Assembly: GCA_013288215.1 (NCBI GenBank)
Contig: JABDCI010000005.1
Coordinates: forward strand, 2,962-66,961
Source: Verrucomicrobiota bacterium
GTDB taxonomy: Bacteria > Verrucomicrobiota > Verrucomicrobiia > JABWAM01
Direction: 5' to 3'
Length of the DNA: 64,000 nt
How positions within the stretch are numbered: position 1 is the first letter of the stretch; every line of letters begins with the position of its first letter. The notes beneath the pieces were generated by a model. The model saw only the letters and a list, made by a program, of their open reading frames with translations, was not told where the DNA came from and did no database searches. Shown piece after piece: positions 25,210 through 35,494 of this stretch. Position numbers and translations under genes: made by a program.

Positions 25210-26301
25210 ATGAAAGAATACCTGGACGGAATTCTCAAATACGCGGTGAACGTGGGTGCATCGGATATTCATTTGAAGCCGAACAAACAGCCCATTCTTC
25301 GAGTTTCGGCCCAACTGGTTCATGTGGAGGCGGATGCACCCACCGATTCGGACATGATCAAGATCGCTCAGCTGATTGTCCCGGAGTTTTTACGCGAGCG
25401 ATTTAACCATGATCGAGAGGTGGACTTTTCCTATTTCGTGCCGGAGATCGGGCGTTTCCGCACGAACATTTATACTCAGCGCGGACAAGTCAATGTGGCG
25501 ATGCGCTATGTGAAGAGTAAAGTTCCGAATTTCAACGCGCTGAATCTTCCCGAAGTTCTGAAAAAATTGGCGATGAGCGAGCGAGGCATCATTCTGGTGG
25601 CCGGCGCGACGGGCAGCGGCAAATCGACGACGCTCGCGTGCATGCTCGAATACGTCAATTCGCATGACAAATGCCACATCATCACGATGGAGGATCCGAT
25701 CGAATATGTTTTCGAGGATAAGCAGTGCATTATCAACCAACGCGAGGTGGGGCTTGATACTATGTCGTTTGGCGCGGCGCTCAAAAACGTGCTGCGCCAG
25801 GATCCCGATGTGATCATGGTGGGTGAGATGCGCGATGCGGAAAGTTTTTCGGCGGCGATCACCGCTGCTGAGACAGGCCATCTGGTCATGACCACGGTCC
25901 ACTCCAATAATGCCACGCAGACCATCGTCCGCGTGCTCGACTTCTTCCCGATGGAGGAACGTGAGCAGATATTGCGGGCGCTCGCGGGCTGTCTTACGGC
26001 GATCATTTGCCAGCGTATGATTCCCGCGCGTGAAGGTGGCGCGGTGCCGGCGGTGGAAATTCTTATCAACACGCCCGTTGTGCGCAAACTCCTGGAGGAG
26101 CAAAAACTCGAAAAGTTGTCCTCCGCTCTCGAGGCCGGCAGCGATGACGGCATGCAGTCCTTCAATCAATCCATTTATAAATTGATCAAGGCAGGCATGA
26201 TCAGTGAGGAAGATGGGGTGCTTAAGTCGTCCAATCCTGATCAACTTCGCATGAATTTGAAGGGCATCTTCTTGGATGAATCGCGCCGGATCATTGGATA
26301 A
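25210..26301 (+). CDS. pilT: Type IV pilus retraction ATPase PilT/PilU family
   Basis: It shows GASDIHLKPN, Walker A GATGSGKSTT, the Asp box MEDPIEY, Walker B QDPDVIMVGEMRD and the His box GHLVMTTVHSNNA. Length is 363 aa. Confidence 0.9.
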   Translation: MKEYLDGILKYAVNVGASDIHLKPNKQPILRVSAQLVHVEADAPTDSDMIKIAQLIVPEFLRERFNHDREVDFSYFVPEIGRFRTNIYTQRGQVNVAMRYVKSKVPNFNALNLPEVLKKLAMSERGIILVAGATGSGKSTTLACMLEYVNSHDKCHIITMEDPIEYVFEDKQCIINQREVGLDTMSFGAALKNVLRQDPDVIMVGEMRDAESFSAAITAAETGHLVMTTVHSNNATQTIVRVLDFFPMEEREQILRALAGCLTAIICQRMIPAREGGAVPAVEILINTPVVRKLLEEQKLEKLSSALEAGSDDGMQSFNQSIYKLIKAGMISEEDGVLKSSNPDQLRMNLKGIFLDESRRIIG

Positions 26302-26321: not shown

Positions 26322-27503
26322 ATGAATTCCTTCCGTTCCCTTTCCTCGAGGTGGCGTGTCGGTTGGGAGGATTGCCTACGCGCGGGACGGTGGCTTTGCC
26401 GCGACCGATTGAGCCTGGTCACCGCGATTTGCCTTGTTTTGGCTTTCCTGGTGCAGTTTGTCGGCATCGCAGGCATCTTTTGGTCGCGCGTTTATTTCGG
26501 AGATCATTTCGATCCTAGCGTCTATCAAACGTTTGAAGAAAAAAGATCGGACGATTCTGTCAGCAAGGTTTTTCGTCAGAAGGAAGCCGAAGCCGCGCGC
26601 CGCGCCGCAGAGTCTCCCATGCAAGACTCGGTTTCTGAGACGGTGGATCGGGCGACCCAGGAGATGGACCAGACTCGCGCCCGCCGAAACGAGGTATCCA
26701 TTATCAAACGCGAGGCTGAAAAACGTGCGGATGCGTTTCTTCGCCAGGCACAGGGATCGATGGATCACGATCTTTCAGAGACCGCCATGGAGCAGATTCA
26801 GAGCGCATTGCGTCTGGTCCCGGACTATCTGCCTGCGATCCGCAAGCTCGCGGATTATTACGAAGCAAGGCATGATTATGCGCAGGCCAGATTTCAGTGG
26901 GAACGCGCTGCTGTTATTGCCCAACCGCAGACACCGGAAATGGAGGAGATCCAGCGCGATCTGGACCGGCTGACAGCGCTTTCTGCCGAAGTGAAGGGCG
27001 AATCGCACCCGGCATCCAATTTTCACGTGGAAGCGCCTGCAGCTCCGCCGAATCCCGGCCGAATTGGAACGAACGAACTTTCCGTCAAAGCGGCTACCCG
27101 GACTGATCTTCCATTGCAGGACCTGTACGACCTTTGCTTTAATTTGCGTCTTTCGCTTGCTTCACGGGGCGAGGAAGCTTCCATGGATTATAACGATACT
27201 CGTGTGGAGATCGTTTTCTATGACCAGTCGCGCACGGCAGGTGGGATGTTAATTCCGCTCAAAGTGCTGAGCACCATTGTGAAGCCGAAGCAAAACTGGA
27301 CGACGGGAACCGAGCAGGTGTTGTCTGTGAAATATTCCGTGCCCAAAGGTTATTTTCGTAAGAAAGAGCAGAGTTTTGGGAATGCCTATTCTTTTTGCGG
27401 ATATATCGTGAATGCCTATTACCGAGGCAAGCTTTTGGACGCTTATGCTTATCCTTCGGAAGTGCTCTCAAGGTATGCGCCTAAGCCAGGAGGAACGTCG
27501 TGA
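26322..27503 (+). CDS. Membrane-anchored protein of unknown function (TM, coiled-coil/TPR-like region, C-terminal beta-rich domain)
   Basis: It has a single TM, LVTAICLVLAFLVQFVGIAGIFW. A charged helical region contains a TPR-like segment, ALRLVPDYLPAIRKLADYYEARHDYAQARFQWERA. It starts 20 nt after pilT and ends in a GTGA overlap with the next gene. Confidence 0.7.
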   Translation: MNSFRSLSSRWRVGWEDCLRAGRWLCRDRLSLVTAICLVLAFLVQFVGIAGIFWSRVYFGDHFDPSVYQTFEEKRSDDSVSKVFRQKEAEAARRAAESPMQDSVSETVDRATQEMDQTRARRNEVSIIKREAEKRADAFLRQAQGSMDHDLSETAMEQIQSALRLVPDYLPAIRKLADYYEARHDYAQARFQWERAAVIAQPQTPEMEEIQRDLDRLTALSAEVKGESHPASNFHVEAPAAPPNPGRIGTNELSVKAATRTDLPLQDLYDLCFNLRLSLASRGEEASMDYNDTRVEIVFYDQSRTAGGMLIPLKVLSTIVKPKQNWTTGTEQVLSVKYSVPKGYFRKKEQSFGNAYSFCGYIVNAYYRGKLLDAYAYPSEVLSRYAPKPGGTS

Positions 27504-29800: not shown

Positions 29801-29905
29801 TCTGAAGTTGTTGCGGCAGAGGAGTTTGTTTGCATTTTGGTTTGTTTGCACTATTTTACTCAAAAAGACGGTGGAAGGACCGATCTCTTCCTTAAGTCGC
29901 TCATC

Positions 29906-30748
29906 ATGGCTAAGCCCAAGCGTTCCAGCGCCGAGTACGAGCAACTGCTCCAGACGGTGCAGATGTTCGAAGTTATTGCCGAGACTCAGCCCAACGACAT
30001 TCAGTCGCTGGAAATCCTAAAAGAAGCGTATTTGAATCTCGATCGCGACGGCGATGCGGTCGTGGTGGCAAAAAAAATCGCGCAGGCTTACGTCAGTCTG
30101 GGACAATTGTCGTCCGCGATTCTCGAATATGAAGGCATTCTCCAGCGCGCGCCGGACGACCCCGACTGCCTTGCGGCACTGGGCGAACTCGAAGGCAAGA
30201 TGACGGGTCTATCCGTGGGGTCGGCTGAAATTGTGGCGGGGAAAGTTGCGGCGGAGCAAGCGCTCGCCGATGCCGAGCAGTTTGAAGACGGCAACGAAGC
30301 CCTTCTTAAATTTTTTCAGGAACAGCAGCTTGTCACGGAAAAGGATGCCAAGACCTTGCTGGCGGGAATTTCTGCGGCAGTTGCGCAGACATCGCCCGAA
30401 CGGCCTGCGCCGTCTCTCATCGCACTTATCAGTGAGCGGGGAATTGCTTCCGAGGAGAAGTGTCTTGGGTTGATCGCGGAGAAAACGCGCATTCCATTCC
30501 TTCCTCTGGGCAGCTACGAGATTGAGAGTGGGCGCGCGCAGTCGCTGGCGAAGGAGTTCAAACTCAAGCATCTCGTGCTTCCTTTTGACCAAATCAGCAA
30601 AACCCTGCTTGTGGCGACCGTGAATCCCTTCGATGCCTTGGCAAAACGGCGCGTGGAAAAAGAAGCTGAAGGGCGCGTGCAATGGTATGTCACTTCGCCG
30701 TTTGATATCACGAAGCAGCTTAAAGATCTTTATCACATTTTGACATGA
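29906..30748 (+). CDS. TPR-like plus T2SSE_N (GspE/MshE N-terminal)-domain protein without an ATPase domain
   Basis: From the ATG at 29906 it reads MAKPKRSSAEYEQLL. The TPR-like helices read LEILKEAYLNLDRDGDAVVVAKKIAQAYVSLGQLSSAILEYEGILQRAPDD. The C-terminus LGLIAEKTRIPFLPLGSYEIE...LKHLVLPFDQISKTLLVATVNPFD is typical of T2SSE_N. It ends in an ATGA overlap with pilB. Confidence 0.7.
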   Translation: MAKPKRSSAEYEQLLQTVQMFEVIAETQPNDIQSLEILKEAYLNLDRDGDAVVVAKKIAQAYVSLGQLSSAILEYEGILQRAPDDPDCLAALGELEGKMTGLSVGSAEIVAGKVAAEQALADAEQFEDGNEALLKFFQEQQLVTEKDAKTLLAGISAAVAQTSPERPAPSLIALISERGIASEEKCLGLIAEKTRIPFLPLGSYEIESGRAQSLAKEFKLKHLVLPFDQISKTLLVATVNPFDALAKRRVEKEAEGRVQWYVTSPFDITKQLKDLYHILT

Positions 30749-32448
30749 AATCCTTTGGTGAGCGCATTGCAGATGCTTTGATTGAGGACGGAGTCCTGCA
30801 AACAGAACAGTTGCAGGAAGTGATGGTGCAGCAAAAAAGTCAGGGAGGACGGCTTCTCAAGATCCTTCTGGATAAATCGTATGTGACAGAGCAGGACATG
30901 ATGGTAAGCATGGGCCGCACGCTGGGTACGCCACCCATTAATCTGAGCCGGTTGAAGGTGGTGAAGGAGGTTGCCGATCTCGTGCCCCGCGATGTTGCCA
31001 GGAATCACCATCTTCTTCCCTTCGCCAAGCTCAACAATACGCTTTACGTGGCAATGGCTGATCCGTTGAACGTGCTGGCACTCGATGACGTGCGTCAGAT
31101 CACGCATCTGGAGGTGTTTCCGATGATCACCACGGAACGCATGGTGCTCGACGCGATCGCGAACATCGACGCCCAGGCGAGCCAGGGAATGGAGGAGATC
31201 ATTAAGGACGAGTCCGTTGACATTGAAGTTTCCGACACCCCTGCGGAGGAGGAGGCCGATGTGACGTCAACGGATTCTTCCGCCGCGCCCGTTGTCAAAA
31301 TTGCCAACCTCATGTTCGCCACGGCGGTGAAGGACAAGGCGAGCGACATCCATCTTGAGTGTTACGAGCGCAGCATGAAATTGCGCTACCGCATCGATGG
31401 TTCCCTTTACGATTATCCACCGCCTCCGAAAGGCATGCAGGCTGCGTTGATTTCGCGCCTCAAAATCATGGCCCATCTCGACATCTCCGAACGCCGTTTG
31501 CCGCAAGACGGTCGCGTGCGCATCAAGATGGCGGGGCGTGACATCGATTTTCGTATGTCGTTTCTTCCCACCAAATATGGGGAAAAGGTCGTCGGTCGTA
31601 TTCTCGACAAAACATCCATTAGCGGAAGCATCGCGGAAATCGGGATGGATCCAGACTCGATGAAGATTTTCAAGGATGCGCTCGATGAACCCCAGGGAAT
31701 GATTCTCGTGACGGGCCCCACCGGATCCGGAAAAACACGCACGCTTTATTCAGCTTTGGCCGAATTGAACAAACCCCAATACAATATTGTCACGGTCGAG
31801 GATCCGATCGAATATGAATTGCCGGGCATCAATCAGGTGCAGGTGAAATCGGACATCGGATTCACGTTTGCCGCTGCTCTGCGATCGATTTTACGCCAAG
31901 ATCCGGACATCGTGATGATTGGTGAAATGCGCGACCAGGAGACGGCGCATATCGGCGTCGAAGCAGCCCTGACCGGCCACCAGGTATTAAGCACGCTTCA
32001 TACCAATGACGCTGCCAGCGCTGTGACTCGTCTGACCGATATGGACATTGAGCCCTTTCTGACGACATCCAGCCTCTCGCTCGCCTGCGCTCAGCGGCTC
32101 CTGCGCCGCGTCTGCACCTCGTGCAAGGAAGCGGTGAAGGTTCCTGACAAATTATGGGAGCAGCTGCGCATCAATCCGAAGGAAGAGGCGGCGTTTACGT
32201 TCTATAAAGGGCGCGGTTGCGATCGCTGCAAAAACAAAGGCTACTCCGGACGGTGCGCCGTGATCGAGCTGATTCGCATCAACGACGACCTTCGCAAACT
32301 CATCCTCGAGCGCACGAGTGCCGCGGAAATCAAGACGCTTGCGCTCAAACAGGGGATGCGCACGTTACGCATCAATGGTATTCTTAAGGCGCGCGAAGGC
32401 ATTACCACCCTCGAAGAAGTTCTGGCAAATACGGCGAGCGATCTGTGA
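30745..32448 (+). CDS. pilB: Type IV pilus assembly ATPase PilB (GspE family)
   Basis: It has an N-terminal T2SSE_N domain, Walker A GPTGSGKTRT, VEDPIEY, Walker B QDPDIVMIGEMRD, GHQVLSTLHTND, and a tetracysteine motif CTSC...CDRC. Length is 567 aa. Confidence 0.92.
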   Translation: MKSFGERIADALIEDGVLQTEQLQEVMVQQKSQGGRLLKILLDKSYVTEQDMMVSMGRTLGTPPINLSRLKVVKEVADLVPRDVARNHHLLPFAKLNNTLYVAMADPLNVLALDDVRQITHLEVFPMITTERMVLDAIANIDAQASQGMEEIIKDESVDIEVSDTPAEEEADVTSTDSSAAPVVKIANLMFATAVKDKASDIHLECYERSMKLRYRIDGSLYDYPPPPKGMQAALISRLKIMAHLDISERRLPQDGRVRIKMAGRDIDFRMSFLPTKYGEKVVGRILDKTSISGSIAEIGMDPDSMKIFKDALDEPQGMILVTGPTGSGKTRTLYSALAELNKPQYNIVTVEDPIEYELPGINQVQVKSDIGFTFAAALRSILRQDPDIVMIGEMRDQETAHIGVEAALTGHQVLSTLHTNDAASAVTRLTDMDIEPFLTTSSLSLACAQRLLRRVCTSCKEAVKVPDKLWEQLRINPKEEAAFTFYKGRGCDRCKNKGYSGRCAVIELIRINDDLRKLILERTSAAEIKTLALKQGMRTLRINGILKAREGITTLEEVLANTASDL

Positions 32449-32516: not shown

Positions 32517-34298
32517 ATGGCCTTCCGGCTTCCATTTTTTAAGTCCAAAGCACCCGCCCAGCCCGCGGCGGGGGCTCCTGCACTGCCACCACCGGCGACG
32601 CCTCCGGCATCTGCATCCAGCCCCAGCGAATCGGTGGTTCGCTCTCCTGCACATACGCAACTAGCCCCATCCCTTGCGAGAAAGGTTCCACCGCGCCAGG
32701 GCAATCTGGCTGCCGCTCTCCAGGCTGCCTCTCAACTTCATCCGGCCGGAACTCAATCCGCTGTTTTCAAACCGAAGGTGAGCGTCGTCGTGAAGGCCCC
32801 ACCCGCTTCGGAGATCCCATCCATTTCGCGTGTGCCGGAACCTGTGATGGAGCAATCCGCCCCGCCGCCTGTCGAAATTCCTTCGACGGTGGATATTCCG
32901 ACATCGGAGATCCTTCCTCTGCTTCCTGAAAACGTGTTGAAACTCGGCTATACCGGAGGATTTCCATCGACTGTTTCGTTGTCTGTCACGGACATTCTAC
33001 CGCAATTGGCGAAGGGACGCGTGCTCTTTTCAATGAGTACGCTCCTGGCTTCGTTTCCGCCGGATTCCATTGAGGCGTCCGTCGTGGAAAGCGGCGACAT
33101 CCAGATCAAGATGCCTCTTCATCAAATCGTTCCCCGTCTTCCTGAGAGTGTGATGCAGCTTCCCACGGGGCAGGTAAAACAGCAAATCGACTCCACGATT
33201 GAGGTTCCATTTTCCGAAAAAGGAAACAAACCCGCGGTTCCGGCGCCCAAAGAAGCCTGGTCTGGACCTAAGCAACCCGAGCCTCCAGCTCTGCCTCCAA
33301 GGCCAATGGCACCCCCGCTTTCCCCTGCAAATTCCCCTTCAGAATCGAAGAGTCCGCTGCTCAAGGACAAACTTGCCGCCGCGACAGCGCTTACTCCGCT
33401 GACATCGCTTTCGCCCTCTGAGGCGACCAGCGCCCTAACCACCTCGATCAAGCTGCCGCTGAAGCCCACCGCTTCCGCGAAGATCCCGCTTCCTGGAATT
33501 CCAAGTCCGGCGCCTCTTCCATCGCCCTCGAAGTCATCGCCCACGATTCGCAAGCCGGATCCCGAGGATCCCATGATGGCTGCGACCATCAAATTTCAGC
33601 CGCCTTCGAATCTCAGAGAGCTGCCTTCGATCAAATTGCCGCATCCCATTGTGTCTCATGCTGAGACGCCTTCGTCGGCTCCTGCACCGATCATCTCTCC
33701 GTCGACGACCACGGGCGATGCCGGATTGTTTGGCACGAATGCCATTCCTCCGGCAGCTCTTCCCATGCTTCCTCGTCCCATCATCAAGTCTGCATCTGCG
33801 ATCATTCCCGTGCCGGACAAGCCCGTCCCACTTCCCCCGGTCGAGAACAAGTTGGTTACGCCCTCAAAACCAGTCGAATCCGTCTCCCAAGGATTGCGTT
33901 CTTTACTCGACATCCCGCAGCAGGACCCCATCCGCTTGCAGGACGTGGCGGCGAAGATTCGAACGCGCCTTAATTCGTTGGGGGTGTTAGTGGCTACCGA
34001 GGATGGTTTGCCGCTTGTCTCGGCAATGCCGGCCGGCGCCGATCTCAACGGCTGGAGCAGCATTGGCACCCACGTATTCCGCAAGTTGGAGCAAGTGAGC
34101 CATAAGCTCTCCTTCGGCACCCCCCAGCGTTGCCTGTTGAGTATCGACGATTGCTGGATTACTGTTTGGCATGACCATGGGGTCTACATGGTTGTGCGCC
34201 ACGGACTCGAACAGATCTCTCCGGAATTTGAAATGCAGATCTCCGAATTAGGAAAGGCAATTGCCGAACATTGCCGCACGCAGCACGCTGCCTCTTAG
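32517..34298 (+). CDS. Proline-rich protein with a C-terminal Roadblock/LC7 (MglB/MglC-like) domain
   Basis: About 480 aa are Pro/Ser/Ala-rich and low in complexity, with three copies of an ILPxLPExV-like motif. The C-terminal ~110 aa (LNSLGVLVATEDGLPLVSAMPAG...CLLSIDDCWITVWHDHGVYMVVRH) fit the Roadblock/LC7 pattern. The stop lies 3 nt before mglA. Confidence 0.7.
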   Translation: MAFRLPFFKSKAPAQPAAGAPALPPPATPPASASSPSESVVRSPAHTQLAPSLARKVPPRQGNLAAALQAASQLHPAGTQSAVFKPKVSVVVKAPPASEIPSISRVPEPVMEQSAPPPVEIPSTVDIPTSEILPLLPENVLKLGYTGGFPSTVSLSVTDILPQLAKGRVLFSMSTLLASFPPDSIEASVVESGDIQIKMPLHQIVPRLPESVMQLPTGQVKQQIDSTIEVPFSEKGNKPAVPAPKEAWSGPKQPEPPALPPRPMAPPLSPANSPSESKSPLLKDKLAAATALTPLTSLSPSEATSALTTSIKLPLKPTASAKIPLPGIPSPAPLPSPSKSSPTIRKPDPEDPMMAATIKFQPPSNLRELPSIKLPHPIVSHAETPSSAPAPIISPSTTTGDAGLFGTNAIPPAALPMLPRPIIKSASAIIPVPDKPVPLPPVENKLVTPSKPVESVSQGLRSLLDIPQQDPIRLQDVAAKIRTRLNSLGVLVATEDGLPLVSAMPAGADLNGWSSIGTHVFRKLEQVSHKLSFGTPQRCLLSIDDCWITVWHDHGVYMVVRHGLEQISPEFEMQISELGKAIAEHCRTQHAAS

Positions 34299-34301
34299 AT
34301 C

Positions 34302-34946
34302 ATGTCGATCATTAATTACGCCAACAAAGAGATCCAGTTTAAGATCGTCTACTACGGCCCCGCACTTTGCGGAAAAACCACCAATCTGTCCTACATCCAT
34401 TCCCAGGTCGCGCCTGAAAACAAAGGAGATCTCGTCTCCCTTGCCACAGCCGCCGACCGCACGCTTTTCTTCGATTTCCTTCCGCTCAATGCCGTTGTGA
34501 TCAAAGGCTTCAAGACCAAGTTCCAACTTTATACGGTGCCGGGCCAAGTCATCTACAACATCACGCGCCAACTTGTGCTGCGCAGTGTCGATGGCATTGT
34601 CTTCGTTGCCGATTCGCAGTGGGAAAAAATGGAGGAAAACATCGAGAGCTTCAAAAACCTCGAAGAAAATCTCACCAAACAGAATCTGAGCCTCGACACC
34701 GTTCCCTACGTGCTTCAATACAACAAGAGAGATATGCCGCATGTCGCGCCGATCAATTATATGGAGTATGTTCTCAACAACCGAAAGGTGAGGGTGCAGT
34801 CGTTCGAATCCGTGGCGAGCACCGGACAGAACGTGTTTTCGACGCTGAACGCCATCTCACGGCTTTTACTCTATAAGTTCACCAAAGAAAGCGACCTTGC
34901 CAACAAACGGTCCAAGACCACCGTGTTGATGTCGACAGTTCGGTAA
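34302..34946 (+). CDS. mglA: MglA-type Ras-like small GTPase
   Basis: [29 protein letters not shown]...[10 protein letters not shown]...YTVPGQV...VFVADSQ...QYNKRD closely parallels Myxococcus MglA as recalled from memory ([29 protein letters not shown]...). Confidence 0.9.
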   Translation: [214 protein letters not shown]

Positions 34947-34960
34947 CCTGGAAACCAATT

Positions 34961-35434
34961 ATGGAAACCATCCCCTTCTTGACCAAGGAAGACGTTGCCG
35001 CCCTCGACAGTCTTCTCATGCACTATCTTGAAAAAACGAGCGGTACGCTGACGCTTGTGATCGACAAAGGTGGGACCATCATTGCGCAGCAGGGCGAAAT
35101 AGAATCCATCGACATCGTCATTGTTTCCGCTCTCGCAGCAGGATCCTTCGCGGCGACCAAGGAATTGGCCCGCCGCATCGGTGAAAATGAATTCAGCGCT
35201 CTCTATCATCAGGGTGTAGACCGTCATATCTTCATGGCCGCGCTGGATGAGCACACCGTCATCGTGACGGTGTTTGGCGACCGCACCACGATAGGACTCG
35301 TACGCCTGTTTACGGTCAACGTCGCCGCCCAGCTTCGTACGCTGCTCAATCAGCTCCGGCAGCGCGACGGCCTCGAGCCGAAACTGGTTCTTGAAGAAGA
35401 TCTTCCCGTCGTCGGAGAGAATATTTTTGGCTAA
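34961..35434 (+). CDS. mglB: MglB-type Roadblock/LC7 protein (predicted MglA GAP)
   Basis: LVIDKGGTIIAQQG, IGENEF and TTIGLVRL match recalled MglB motifs (FLVDKNGQLIS, IGENEF, SLGLVRL). It starts 14 nt after mglA. Confidence 0.85.
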   Translation: METIPFLTKEDVAALDSLLMHYLEKTSGTLTLVIDKGGTIIAQQGEIESIDIVIVSALAAGSFAATKELARRIGENEFSALYHQGVDRHIFMAALDEHTVIVTVFGDRTTIGLVRLFTVNVAAQLRTLLNQLRQRDGLEPKLVLEEDLPVVGENIFG

Positions 35435-35494
35435 CCGCCGTTCCTTTGTTGCCACCAAAAGACGCCGGGCGGCTTGGCGCATTGTTTTGTTCGG

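Follow-up and report, generated by a model that had tools for sequence, protein, structure and literature searches.

Roadblock dimers offer a platform to small GTPases as well as to further Roadblock dimers, and Roadblock and longin platforms act as GTPase-activating proteins (GAPs) or guanine nucleotide exchange factors (GEFs) for small GTPases. To our knowledge, nearly all that is understood about polarity switches made of the GTPase MglA and its Roadblock partner MglB comes from Myxococcus, in which RomR, RomX, MglC and further lineage-specific proteins are required for targeting to the pole. The protein family described here bears on how this GTPase is anchored in other phyla. We analysed a stretch of 64,000 nucleotides from a Verrucomicrobiota bacterium (assembly GCA_013288215.1, contig JABDCI010000005.1, positions 2,962 to 66,961; hereafter the window) and focused on the gene at 32517-34298 (+), immediately upstream of mglA, whose product we call X. 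X is a real, conserved and uncharacterised MglA/MglB-associated scaffold with one new domain; our literature search found no paper on its architecture.

Several described systems lie close to X. RomR, built of a receiver (REC) domain, a Pro-rich linker and an acidic C-terminal region, serves as a polarity scaffold and recruits a Roadblock protein. In the eukaryotic Ragulator/LAMTOR-Rag system, a small GTPase is tethered to a landmark by Roadblock dimers stacked on one another. MglC forms a Roadblock dimer that sits between RomR and MglB, a contact that is broken by MglA-GTP (PMC10329633). MglB has both GAP and exchange (GEF) properties and is sequestered by RomR (PMC13408092). Two Roadblock proteins coupled to one MglA are a pattern already catalogued for other MglA groups, and a 2014 survey listed only ‘Group 5’ MglA for Verrucomicrobia (PMC4316618).

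The C-terminal domain of X has a Roadblock fold

X is encoded by an uninterrupted open reading frame (ORF) of 593 codons. The true start is ATG 32517, as shown by the N-terminus MAFRxPFxKxK, which is invariant among four homologues sharing 38-49% overall identity; the public gene call P0001 (483 aa) begins later, at Met111 of X. The stop codon TAG (34296-34298) is separated from the mglA ATG (34302) by 3 nt. The 593-aa product is a cytoplasmic scaffold protein with no transmembrane segment: it has no hydrophobic span long enough for a membrane helix, the maximum being 11 hydrophobic residues in any run of 19. Searches of Pfam and NCBIfam with full-length X matched no family. The completeness of the source genome is 52.6%. 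Two antisense ORFs, 33122-33592 (-) with 156 codons and 33656-34120 (-) with 154 codons, overlap the Pro-rich part of X; both look like by-products of biased composition (GC skew about -0.18) and not like genes. By composition and conservation, X splits into five parts, comprising residues 1-11, 12-115, 116-240, 241-457 and 458-593.

The last of these (residues 458-593, 33888-34295, +) was modelled by AlphaFold2 (AF2) on a seven-sequence alignment with high confidence (predicted local distance difference test, pLDDT, 89.8; predicted template modelling score, pTM, 0.83). The predicted order of elements, alpha-beta-beta-alpha-beta-beta-beta-alpha, is that of the Roadblock/LC7 fold, with helices at domain residues 17-28, 53-74 and 112-135 and strands at 32-37, 42-45, 81-86, 89-96 and 99-105; the additional helix at the C-terminus is one of the MglB/LAMTOR type. 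A Foldseek search of the Protein Data Bank (PDB) returned 120 matches at an expectation value (E) ≤ 1e-3, with only Roadblock, MglB, LAMTOR or dynein LC7 chains among the best 50; MglC is absent among these best 50 of the 120. The top match was an Asgard archaeal Roadblock3 (9jue; E 7e-8; TM-score 0.74/0.83), and M. xanthus MglB (6hjm) aligned with a TM-score of 0.76/0.83. Further matches included Thermus MglB (1j3w), a Streptomyces Roadblock protein (3kye) and LAMTOR2/3 chains (1veu, 6ehr, 5x6u).

At the level of primary sequence, phmmer with the C-terminal domain alone against the PDB reached a Roadblock protein only at E 0.57. The profile of the C-terminal family, by comparison, reached the Robl_LC7 protein 7f8f at 1.7e-5 and another solved Robl_LC7 protein at 4e-5, with MglC (7ct3) only at E 0.16. 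The Pfam Roadblock model PF03259 is reached at E ≤ 0.01 by 14 of 33 family members, the best at 6e-8. We regard the Roadblock assignment as sound by predicted fold, and transitively by sequence. The original prediction, made from the letters of the window, had recognised both a Roadblock domain in the last ~110 residues and the 3-nt spacing to mglA, and both descriptions are borne out.

The N-terminal half holds a conserved module of its own

The N-terminal peptide MAFRLPFFKSK (residues 1-11, 32517-32549, +) is conserved, with M1, A2, F3, P6, F7, K9 and K11 invariant in close homologues. Across the family its consensus is M-[KTR]-[ILF]-P-F-[FL]-x-x-[FS]-K-K, and ‘PF’ falls among the first seven residues in 46 of 85 long, Met-initiated representatives. 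The peptide is probably a short docking motif. It is followed by an Ala/Pro/Ser-rich stretch (residues 12-115, +; A 20, P 18 and S 13% over residues 1-115) that holds two islands conserved in the homologue alignment, PRQGNLAAALQAA (residues 59-71) and QSAVFKPKVSVVVK (residues 80-93), at 32691-32795 (+). The invariant columns of these islands are P59, R60, G62 and L64-L68, and Q80, S81, A82 and F84-V88.

Residues 116-240 (32862-33236, +) form a conserved module of ~115 aa, which AF2 modelled on 28 sequences with a pLDDT of 83.9 and a pTM of 0.66, the pLDDT rising to 91-95 over model residues 11-70. The model consists of four strand-helix units followed by a poorly ordered tail with a conserved PF motif (IEVPFSEKG). 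All three copies of an ILPxLP motif lie inside this module, namely EILPLLPENVLKL at residues 131-143, DILPQLAKGRVLF at 159-171 and QIVPRLPESVMQL at 203-215. According to the model, they are the helices of the strand-helix units and together belong to one pseudo-repetitive globular domain, not to a series of linear repeats in disorder. Their recurrence is more than chance, since the module is recovered in 24 of 401 Verrucomicrobiota genomes (E 1e-6 to 1e-44) and in 123 of 152 top family representatives. No module was found outside X-type frames in the 401-genome phylum sample. The best Foldseek match of the module in the PDB had an E of only 8.3, and Pfam holds no model for it; it is either a new fold or an unrecognisable relative of a known one.

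Between the module and the Roadblock domain lies a variable linker rich in Pro, Ser and Ala (residues 241-457, 33237-33887, +; P 24, S 13 and A 12%), the length of which varies freely in the alignment. It includes one conserved island, LSPSEATSALTTSIKLPLKP (residues 298-317, 33408-33467, +), and no relevant tandem DNA repeats were found within it. Two near-identical homologues, P0002 (402 aa; L010:6615-7823) and P0003 (634 aa; L006:8001-9905), differ by a clean deletion of ~231 linker residues, which is either a natural length polymorphism or an assembly collapse of low-complexity DNA. Because P0002 lacks these residues, the linker appears dispensable for the fold. The threefold recurrence of a short motif had already been noticed in the original prediction. 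Its description of about 480 residues as low-complexity sequence holds for residues 1-115 and 241-457 and fails for residues 116-240, where it overlooked the conserved module that is predicted to be folded.

X represents a large family with a common layout

Word-indexed homologue searches found only 4-5 relatives, a number that badly under-represents the family. When the profile of the C-terminal domain was searched exhaustively, 1511 cluster representatives were retrieved at E ≤ 1e-3, 428 of them at E ≤ 1e-10. Almost without exception they have 400-900 residues and carry the Roadblock domain at the extreme C-terminus. A local hidden Markov model of the module detected one to three copies in 123 of the 152 best representatives, the rest being mostly short fragments. 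The family layout runs from an N-terminal M-x-I-P-F peptide through one to three modules and a variable linker to the Roadblock domain, often with a ComEA-type helix-hairpin-helix (HhH) domain before the latter. X itself follows it with its module (116-240) and Roadblock domain (458-593).

A strong ComEA-type HHH_3 match (E down to 5e-20) is located between linker and Roadblock domain in 16 of 33 members, with examples at L002:409-2136 (-) and L005:562-2649 (-). The domain is optional in the family, and it is absent from the X of the window and its close clade. Members carry automatic names everywhere, either ‘competence ComEA-like helix-hairpin-helix protein’ or ‘predicted regulator of Ras-like GTPase activity (Roadblock/LC7/MglB family)’. 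Each captures one domain, neither gives the whole layout, and the N-terminal module is named by none. Relatives with organism titles come from uncultured Verrucomicrobiota, and a search for related loci gave three Verrucomicrobiota metagenome-assembled genomes.

X accompanies MglA and MglB across the phylum

The distribution of X was followed in a sample of 401 Verrucomicrobiota genomes, from which 20 loci were cut out and scanned. These genomes are related, so that the counts are descriptive and do not amount to a statistical test, although more than 20 families are covered. The X Roadblock profile matched 27 genomes, the X module 24 and MglA 30. X occurs in 26 of the 30 MglA-bearing genomes, and profiles together with the local locus scan found no two-domain X among the 371 genomes that lack MglA. 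X is missing from four MglA-bearing genomes (G123, G342, G354 and G369), which all belong to family f12 and whose MglA is more distant (54-56% identity); a different MglA cassette is probably in use there. Two further genomes, G243 and G372, were rejected as members, as they gave only partial Roadblock-profile matches and had neither module nor MglA.

Module and Roadblock domain are present at all 20 loci, split in L034 over two overlapping stop-to-stop frames. At 17 of the 20, X stands beside mglA-mglB, with seven co-directional and ten divergent arrangements, and a canonical MglB is encoded in every linked locus. The four close homologues of X all adjoin mglA-mglB as well; the contig of P0004 starts inside the upstream gene, and only X-mglA-mglB is confirmed there. 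With a C-terminal region predicted to fold as Roadblock/LC7 and homologues that do stand next to mglA, the original prediction passes both refutation tests that it had named.

X is an old paralogue inherited together with MglB

In a maximum-likelihood tree of 21 X Roadblock domains and 18 MglB proteins from the same loci, the two sets are split at 100/100 support, the branch between them measuring 4.4 changes per site. Either half of the tree shows the same sub-groupings: L017 with L018; L015 with L030 and L016; L027 with L028; L026 with L029; and L019 with L022, L024 and L025. X is therefore an old paralogue that has long been inherited together with MglB, not a recent duplicate. In five genomes, four of them 94-100% complete, MglB is the only Pfam-level Roadblock gene besides X. 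The locus is therefore a two-Roadblock, one-GTPase module, and the gene content of these genomes agrees with the original prediction on this point.

Like the solved MglB proteins (6hjm, 6h5b, 1j3w, 3t1q), X has the Roadblock fold with the C-terminal helix and shares an operon with MglA. MglB, however, is a stand-alone protein of 130-180 aa, whereas X has 593 aa and several domains, matches neither NF052242 nor PF03259, falls in a separate clade and is encoded two genes upstream of the true MglB. With M. xanthus MglC (7ct3), X would share the position of a second, non-GAP-type Roadblock protein in an MglA/MglB module. MglC connects MglB with a landmark protein under the control of MglA-GTP (PMC10329633), and the role proposed for X is the same. 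Yet MglC is a single domain of ~120 aa with no fused targeting region that binds MglB through a conserved acidic FDI surface, whereas X adds an N-terminal peptide, a module and a Pro-rich linker. The X domain also differs from MglC in its extra C-terminal helix and in its structural matches, which are led by Asgard Roadblock and MglB. X resembles RomR in its long, Pro-rich and intrinsically disordered linker, but the Pfam scan found no receiver domain and there is no acidic helical tail, so that the likeness is one of layout only. LAMTOR2/3 are among the structural matches of X; Ragulator/Rag is nevertheless eukaryotic, anchored to the membrane by lipidated LAMTOR1 and built around another GTPase family, and only the fold is shared.

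Judged by analogy, X would be functionally closest to MglC, and its layout recalls RomR plus MglC in one chain. The suggestion in the original prediction of an MglC/RomR-like hybrid is not supported as homology: there was no NCBIfam or Pfam match, MglC reached only E 0.16 and a REC domain is missing. The likeness to MglC and RomR is best read as an analogy of function.

Type IV pilus genes recur in the neighbourhood

Upstream of X, the window encodes a TPR protein with a MshEN Pfam match (29837-30748, +) and, immediately before X, PilB (30745-32448, +; Pfam T2SSE 1.9e-132). Downstream follow mglA (34302-34946, +; 214 aa), whose product is an orthologue of M. xanthus MglA (PDB 5ymx/6h17; E 4e-70) and has the TVPGQ switch-II motif and the intrinsic Arg context, and mglB (34961-35434, +; 157 aa), which encodes the canonical Roadblock GAP partner (PF03259 2.9e-12; PDB MglB 6h5b 1.3e-17; NF052242 7.7e-14, below the cut-off). 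A terminator-like hairpin stands after mglB at 35463-35479. As the MglA of the window is of the Myxococcus/Thermus type, the phylum also carries Group-1-like MglA, in 30 of the 401 genomes.

The gene string of the window begins with PilT (ORF 25210-26301). All four close homologues belong to one string of an unknown 386-aa protein, a REC-PATAN-kinase-FGE protein, a TPR/MshEN protein, PilB, X, MglA and MglB, confirmed for P0004 from X to MglB. The gene at 26322-27503 of the window and the 386-aa genes in L006, L007, L010 and L011 encode a conserved ~390-aa protein that heads this string; it has no Pfam match, and its unannotated gene stands upstream of the REC-PATAN-kinase-FGE gene. In L010, mglB is followed after ~2 kb by a Tad-like pilus cluster (L010:10926-15298; RcpC, FHA-T2SSE ATPase, two T2SSF).

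Over the phylum, TPR/MshEN-pilB is found directly upstream of X in four of the seven co-directional loci (L015, L016, L030, L031), and pilB follows mglB in two of the ten divergent ones. PATAN/kinase-like genes adjoin X in distant classes (L029:8675-10375, L026:6946-8796, L017:12113-13258 and L018:6412-7494), and in the co-directional locus L029 such a gene separates X from mglA. The PATAN proteins may represent a fourth partner that recurs.

Discussion

We consider it fairly probable that X works as an adaptor in the cytoplasm, docking on MglB/MglA and linking the polarity switch to the type IV pilus motor. Its Roadblock domain, presumably a dimer as in other Roadblock proteins, which pair through the beta-sheet edge and helix alpha2, would dock on the MglB dimer and/or MglA, as MglC does on MglB in Myxococcus and Ragulator on the Rag Roadblock domains. 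At the opposite end, the N-terminal peptide and the module would bind a cellular landmark. PilB, the type IV pilus extension motor, or the cytoplasmic platform is the best candidate for this landmark, because the pilB, TPR-MshEN and PATAN neighbourhood recurs. The long, length-variable Pro-rich linker would act as a flexible tether between the two ends, and the nucleotide state of MglA would decide whether the GTPase switch stays at the pilus machine or is let go. A bolder version, which we put forward tentatively and with some doubt, would make X a single-chain replacement for the RomR-MglC arm. The module and the M-x-I-P-F peptide would then recognise PilB directly, and MglA, MglB and X would form a minimal three-protein switch hard-wired to pilus extension.

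Several observations speak against a Roadblock adaptor tied to the pilus. PF03259 did not match X alone at E ≤ 1, and hhalign of the C-terminal profile with the neighbouring MglB gave no real match (probability 2%). The X Roadblock domain of the window forms a long branch (2.34) in the tree; it is because of this branch that the window's own copy lacks a Pfam match. Three of the 20 loci (G370, G352, G223) have no mglA within 9 kb of X, only about one locus in three has pilB next to X, and kinship among the sampled genomes inflates the apparent co-occurrence. Finally, the HhH domain in half of the family suggests, from sequence, a DNA-binding role that the adaptor model does not explain.

Alternatively, X could be a catalytic-type regulator of the nucleotide state of MglA (a second GAP, a RomY-like co-GAP or an exchange/release factor) whose N-terminal part only localises it. 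Roadblock and longin platforms do act as GAPs or GEFs, and MglB has both properties (PMC13408092). X moreover has the MglB/LAMTOR-type extra C-terminal helix, is structurally nearer to MglB (6hjm) than to MglC, which is missing from the top 50 matches, and is tightly coupled to mglA by the 3-nt spacing. However, the linked loci each possess a GAP already in their canonical MglB, the X Roadblock domain is very far from MglB (branch 4.4; no hhalign match), and the conservation of the N-terminal module and peptide points to a second binding function; a catalytic role is unlikely in our view.

The HHH_3 domains of 16 of the 33 members (down to 5e-20) would fit with a DNA- or nucleoid-associated positioning protein, or with some other pilus-independent output of MglA, the pilB neighbourhood in the window's class being a lineage-specific accident; in most divergent-type loci, indeed, pilB is not adjacent. 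Yet the X of the window and its clade have no HhH, the cluster in the window also holds pilT (25210-26301), and distant classes, too, repeatedly have pilB, TPR-MshEN and PATAN genes close to X; we rate such a role as quite improbable. As for a spurious or decaying frame whose likeness to Roadblock arose by chance in GC- and Pro-rich DNA, two thirds of X are of low complexity, X has no Pfam match and the public gene call is shortened at its N-terminus. This reading is refuted by the conservation data and has practically no likelihood left: X is conserved from its first to its last residue in homologues of 38-49% identity, the family counts 428 cluster representatives at E ≤ 1e-10, two domains are predicted confidently by AF2 and synteny is conserved.

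The X family is thus a conserved third MglA/MglB partner across Verrucomicrobiota, with a new domain; this N-terminal module merits a family entry of its own. The layout is clear, with a putative landmark-binding end, a tether and a Roadblock end, and X is a concrete candidate for the missing link between the polarity switch and the type IV pilus motor. If the adaptor role holds true, X would add another example of signalling by stacks of Roadblock domains, like that of Ragulator-Rag in eukaryotes.

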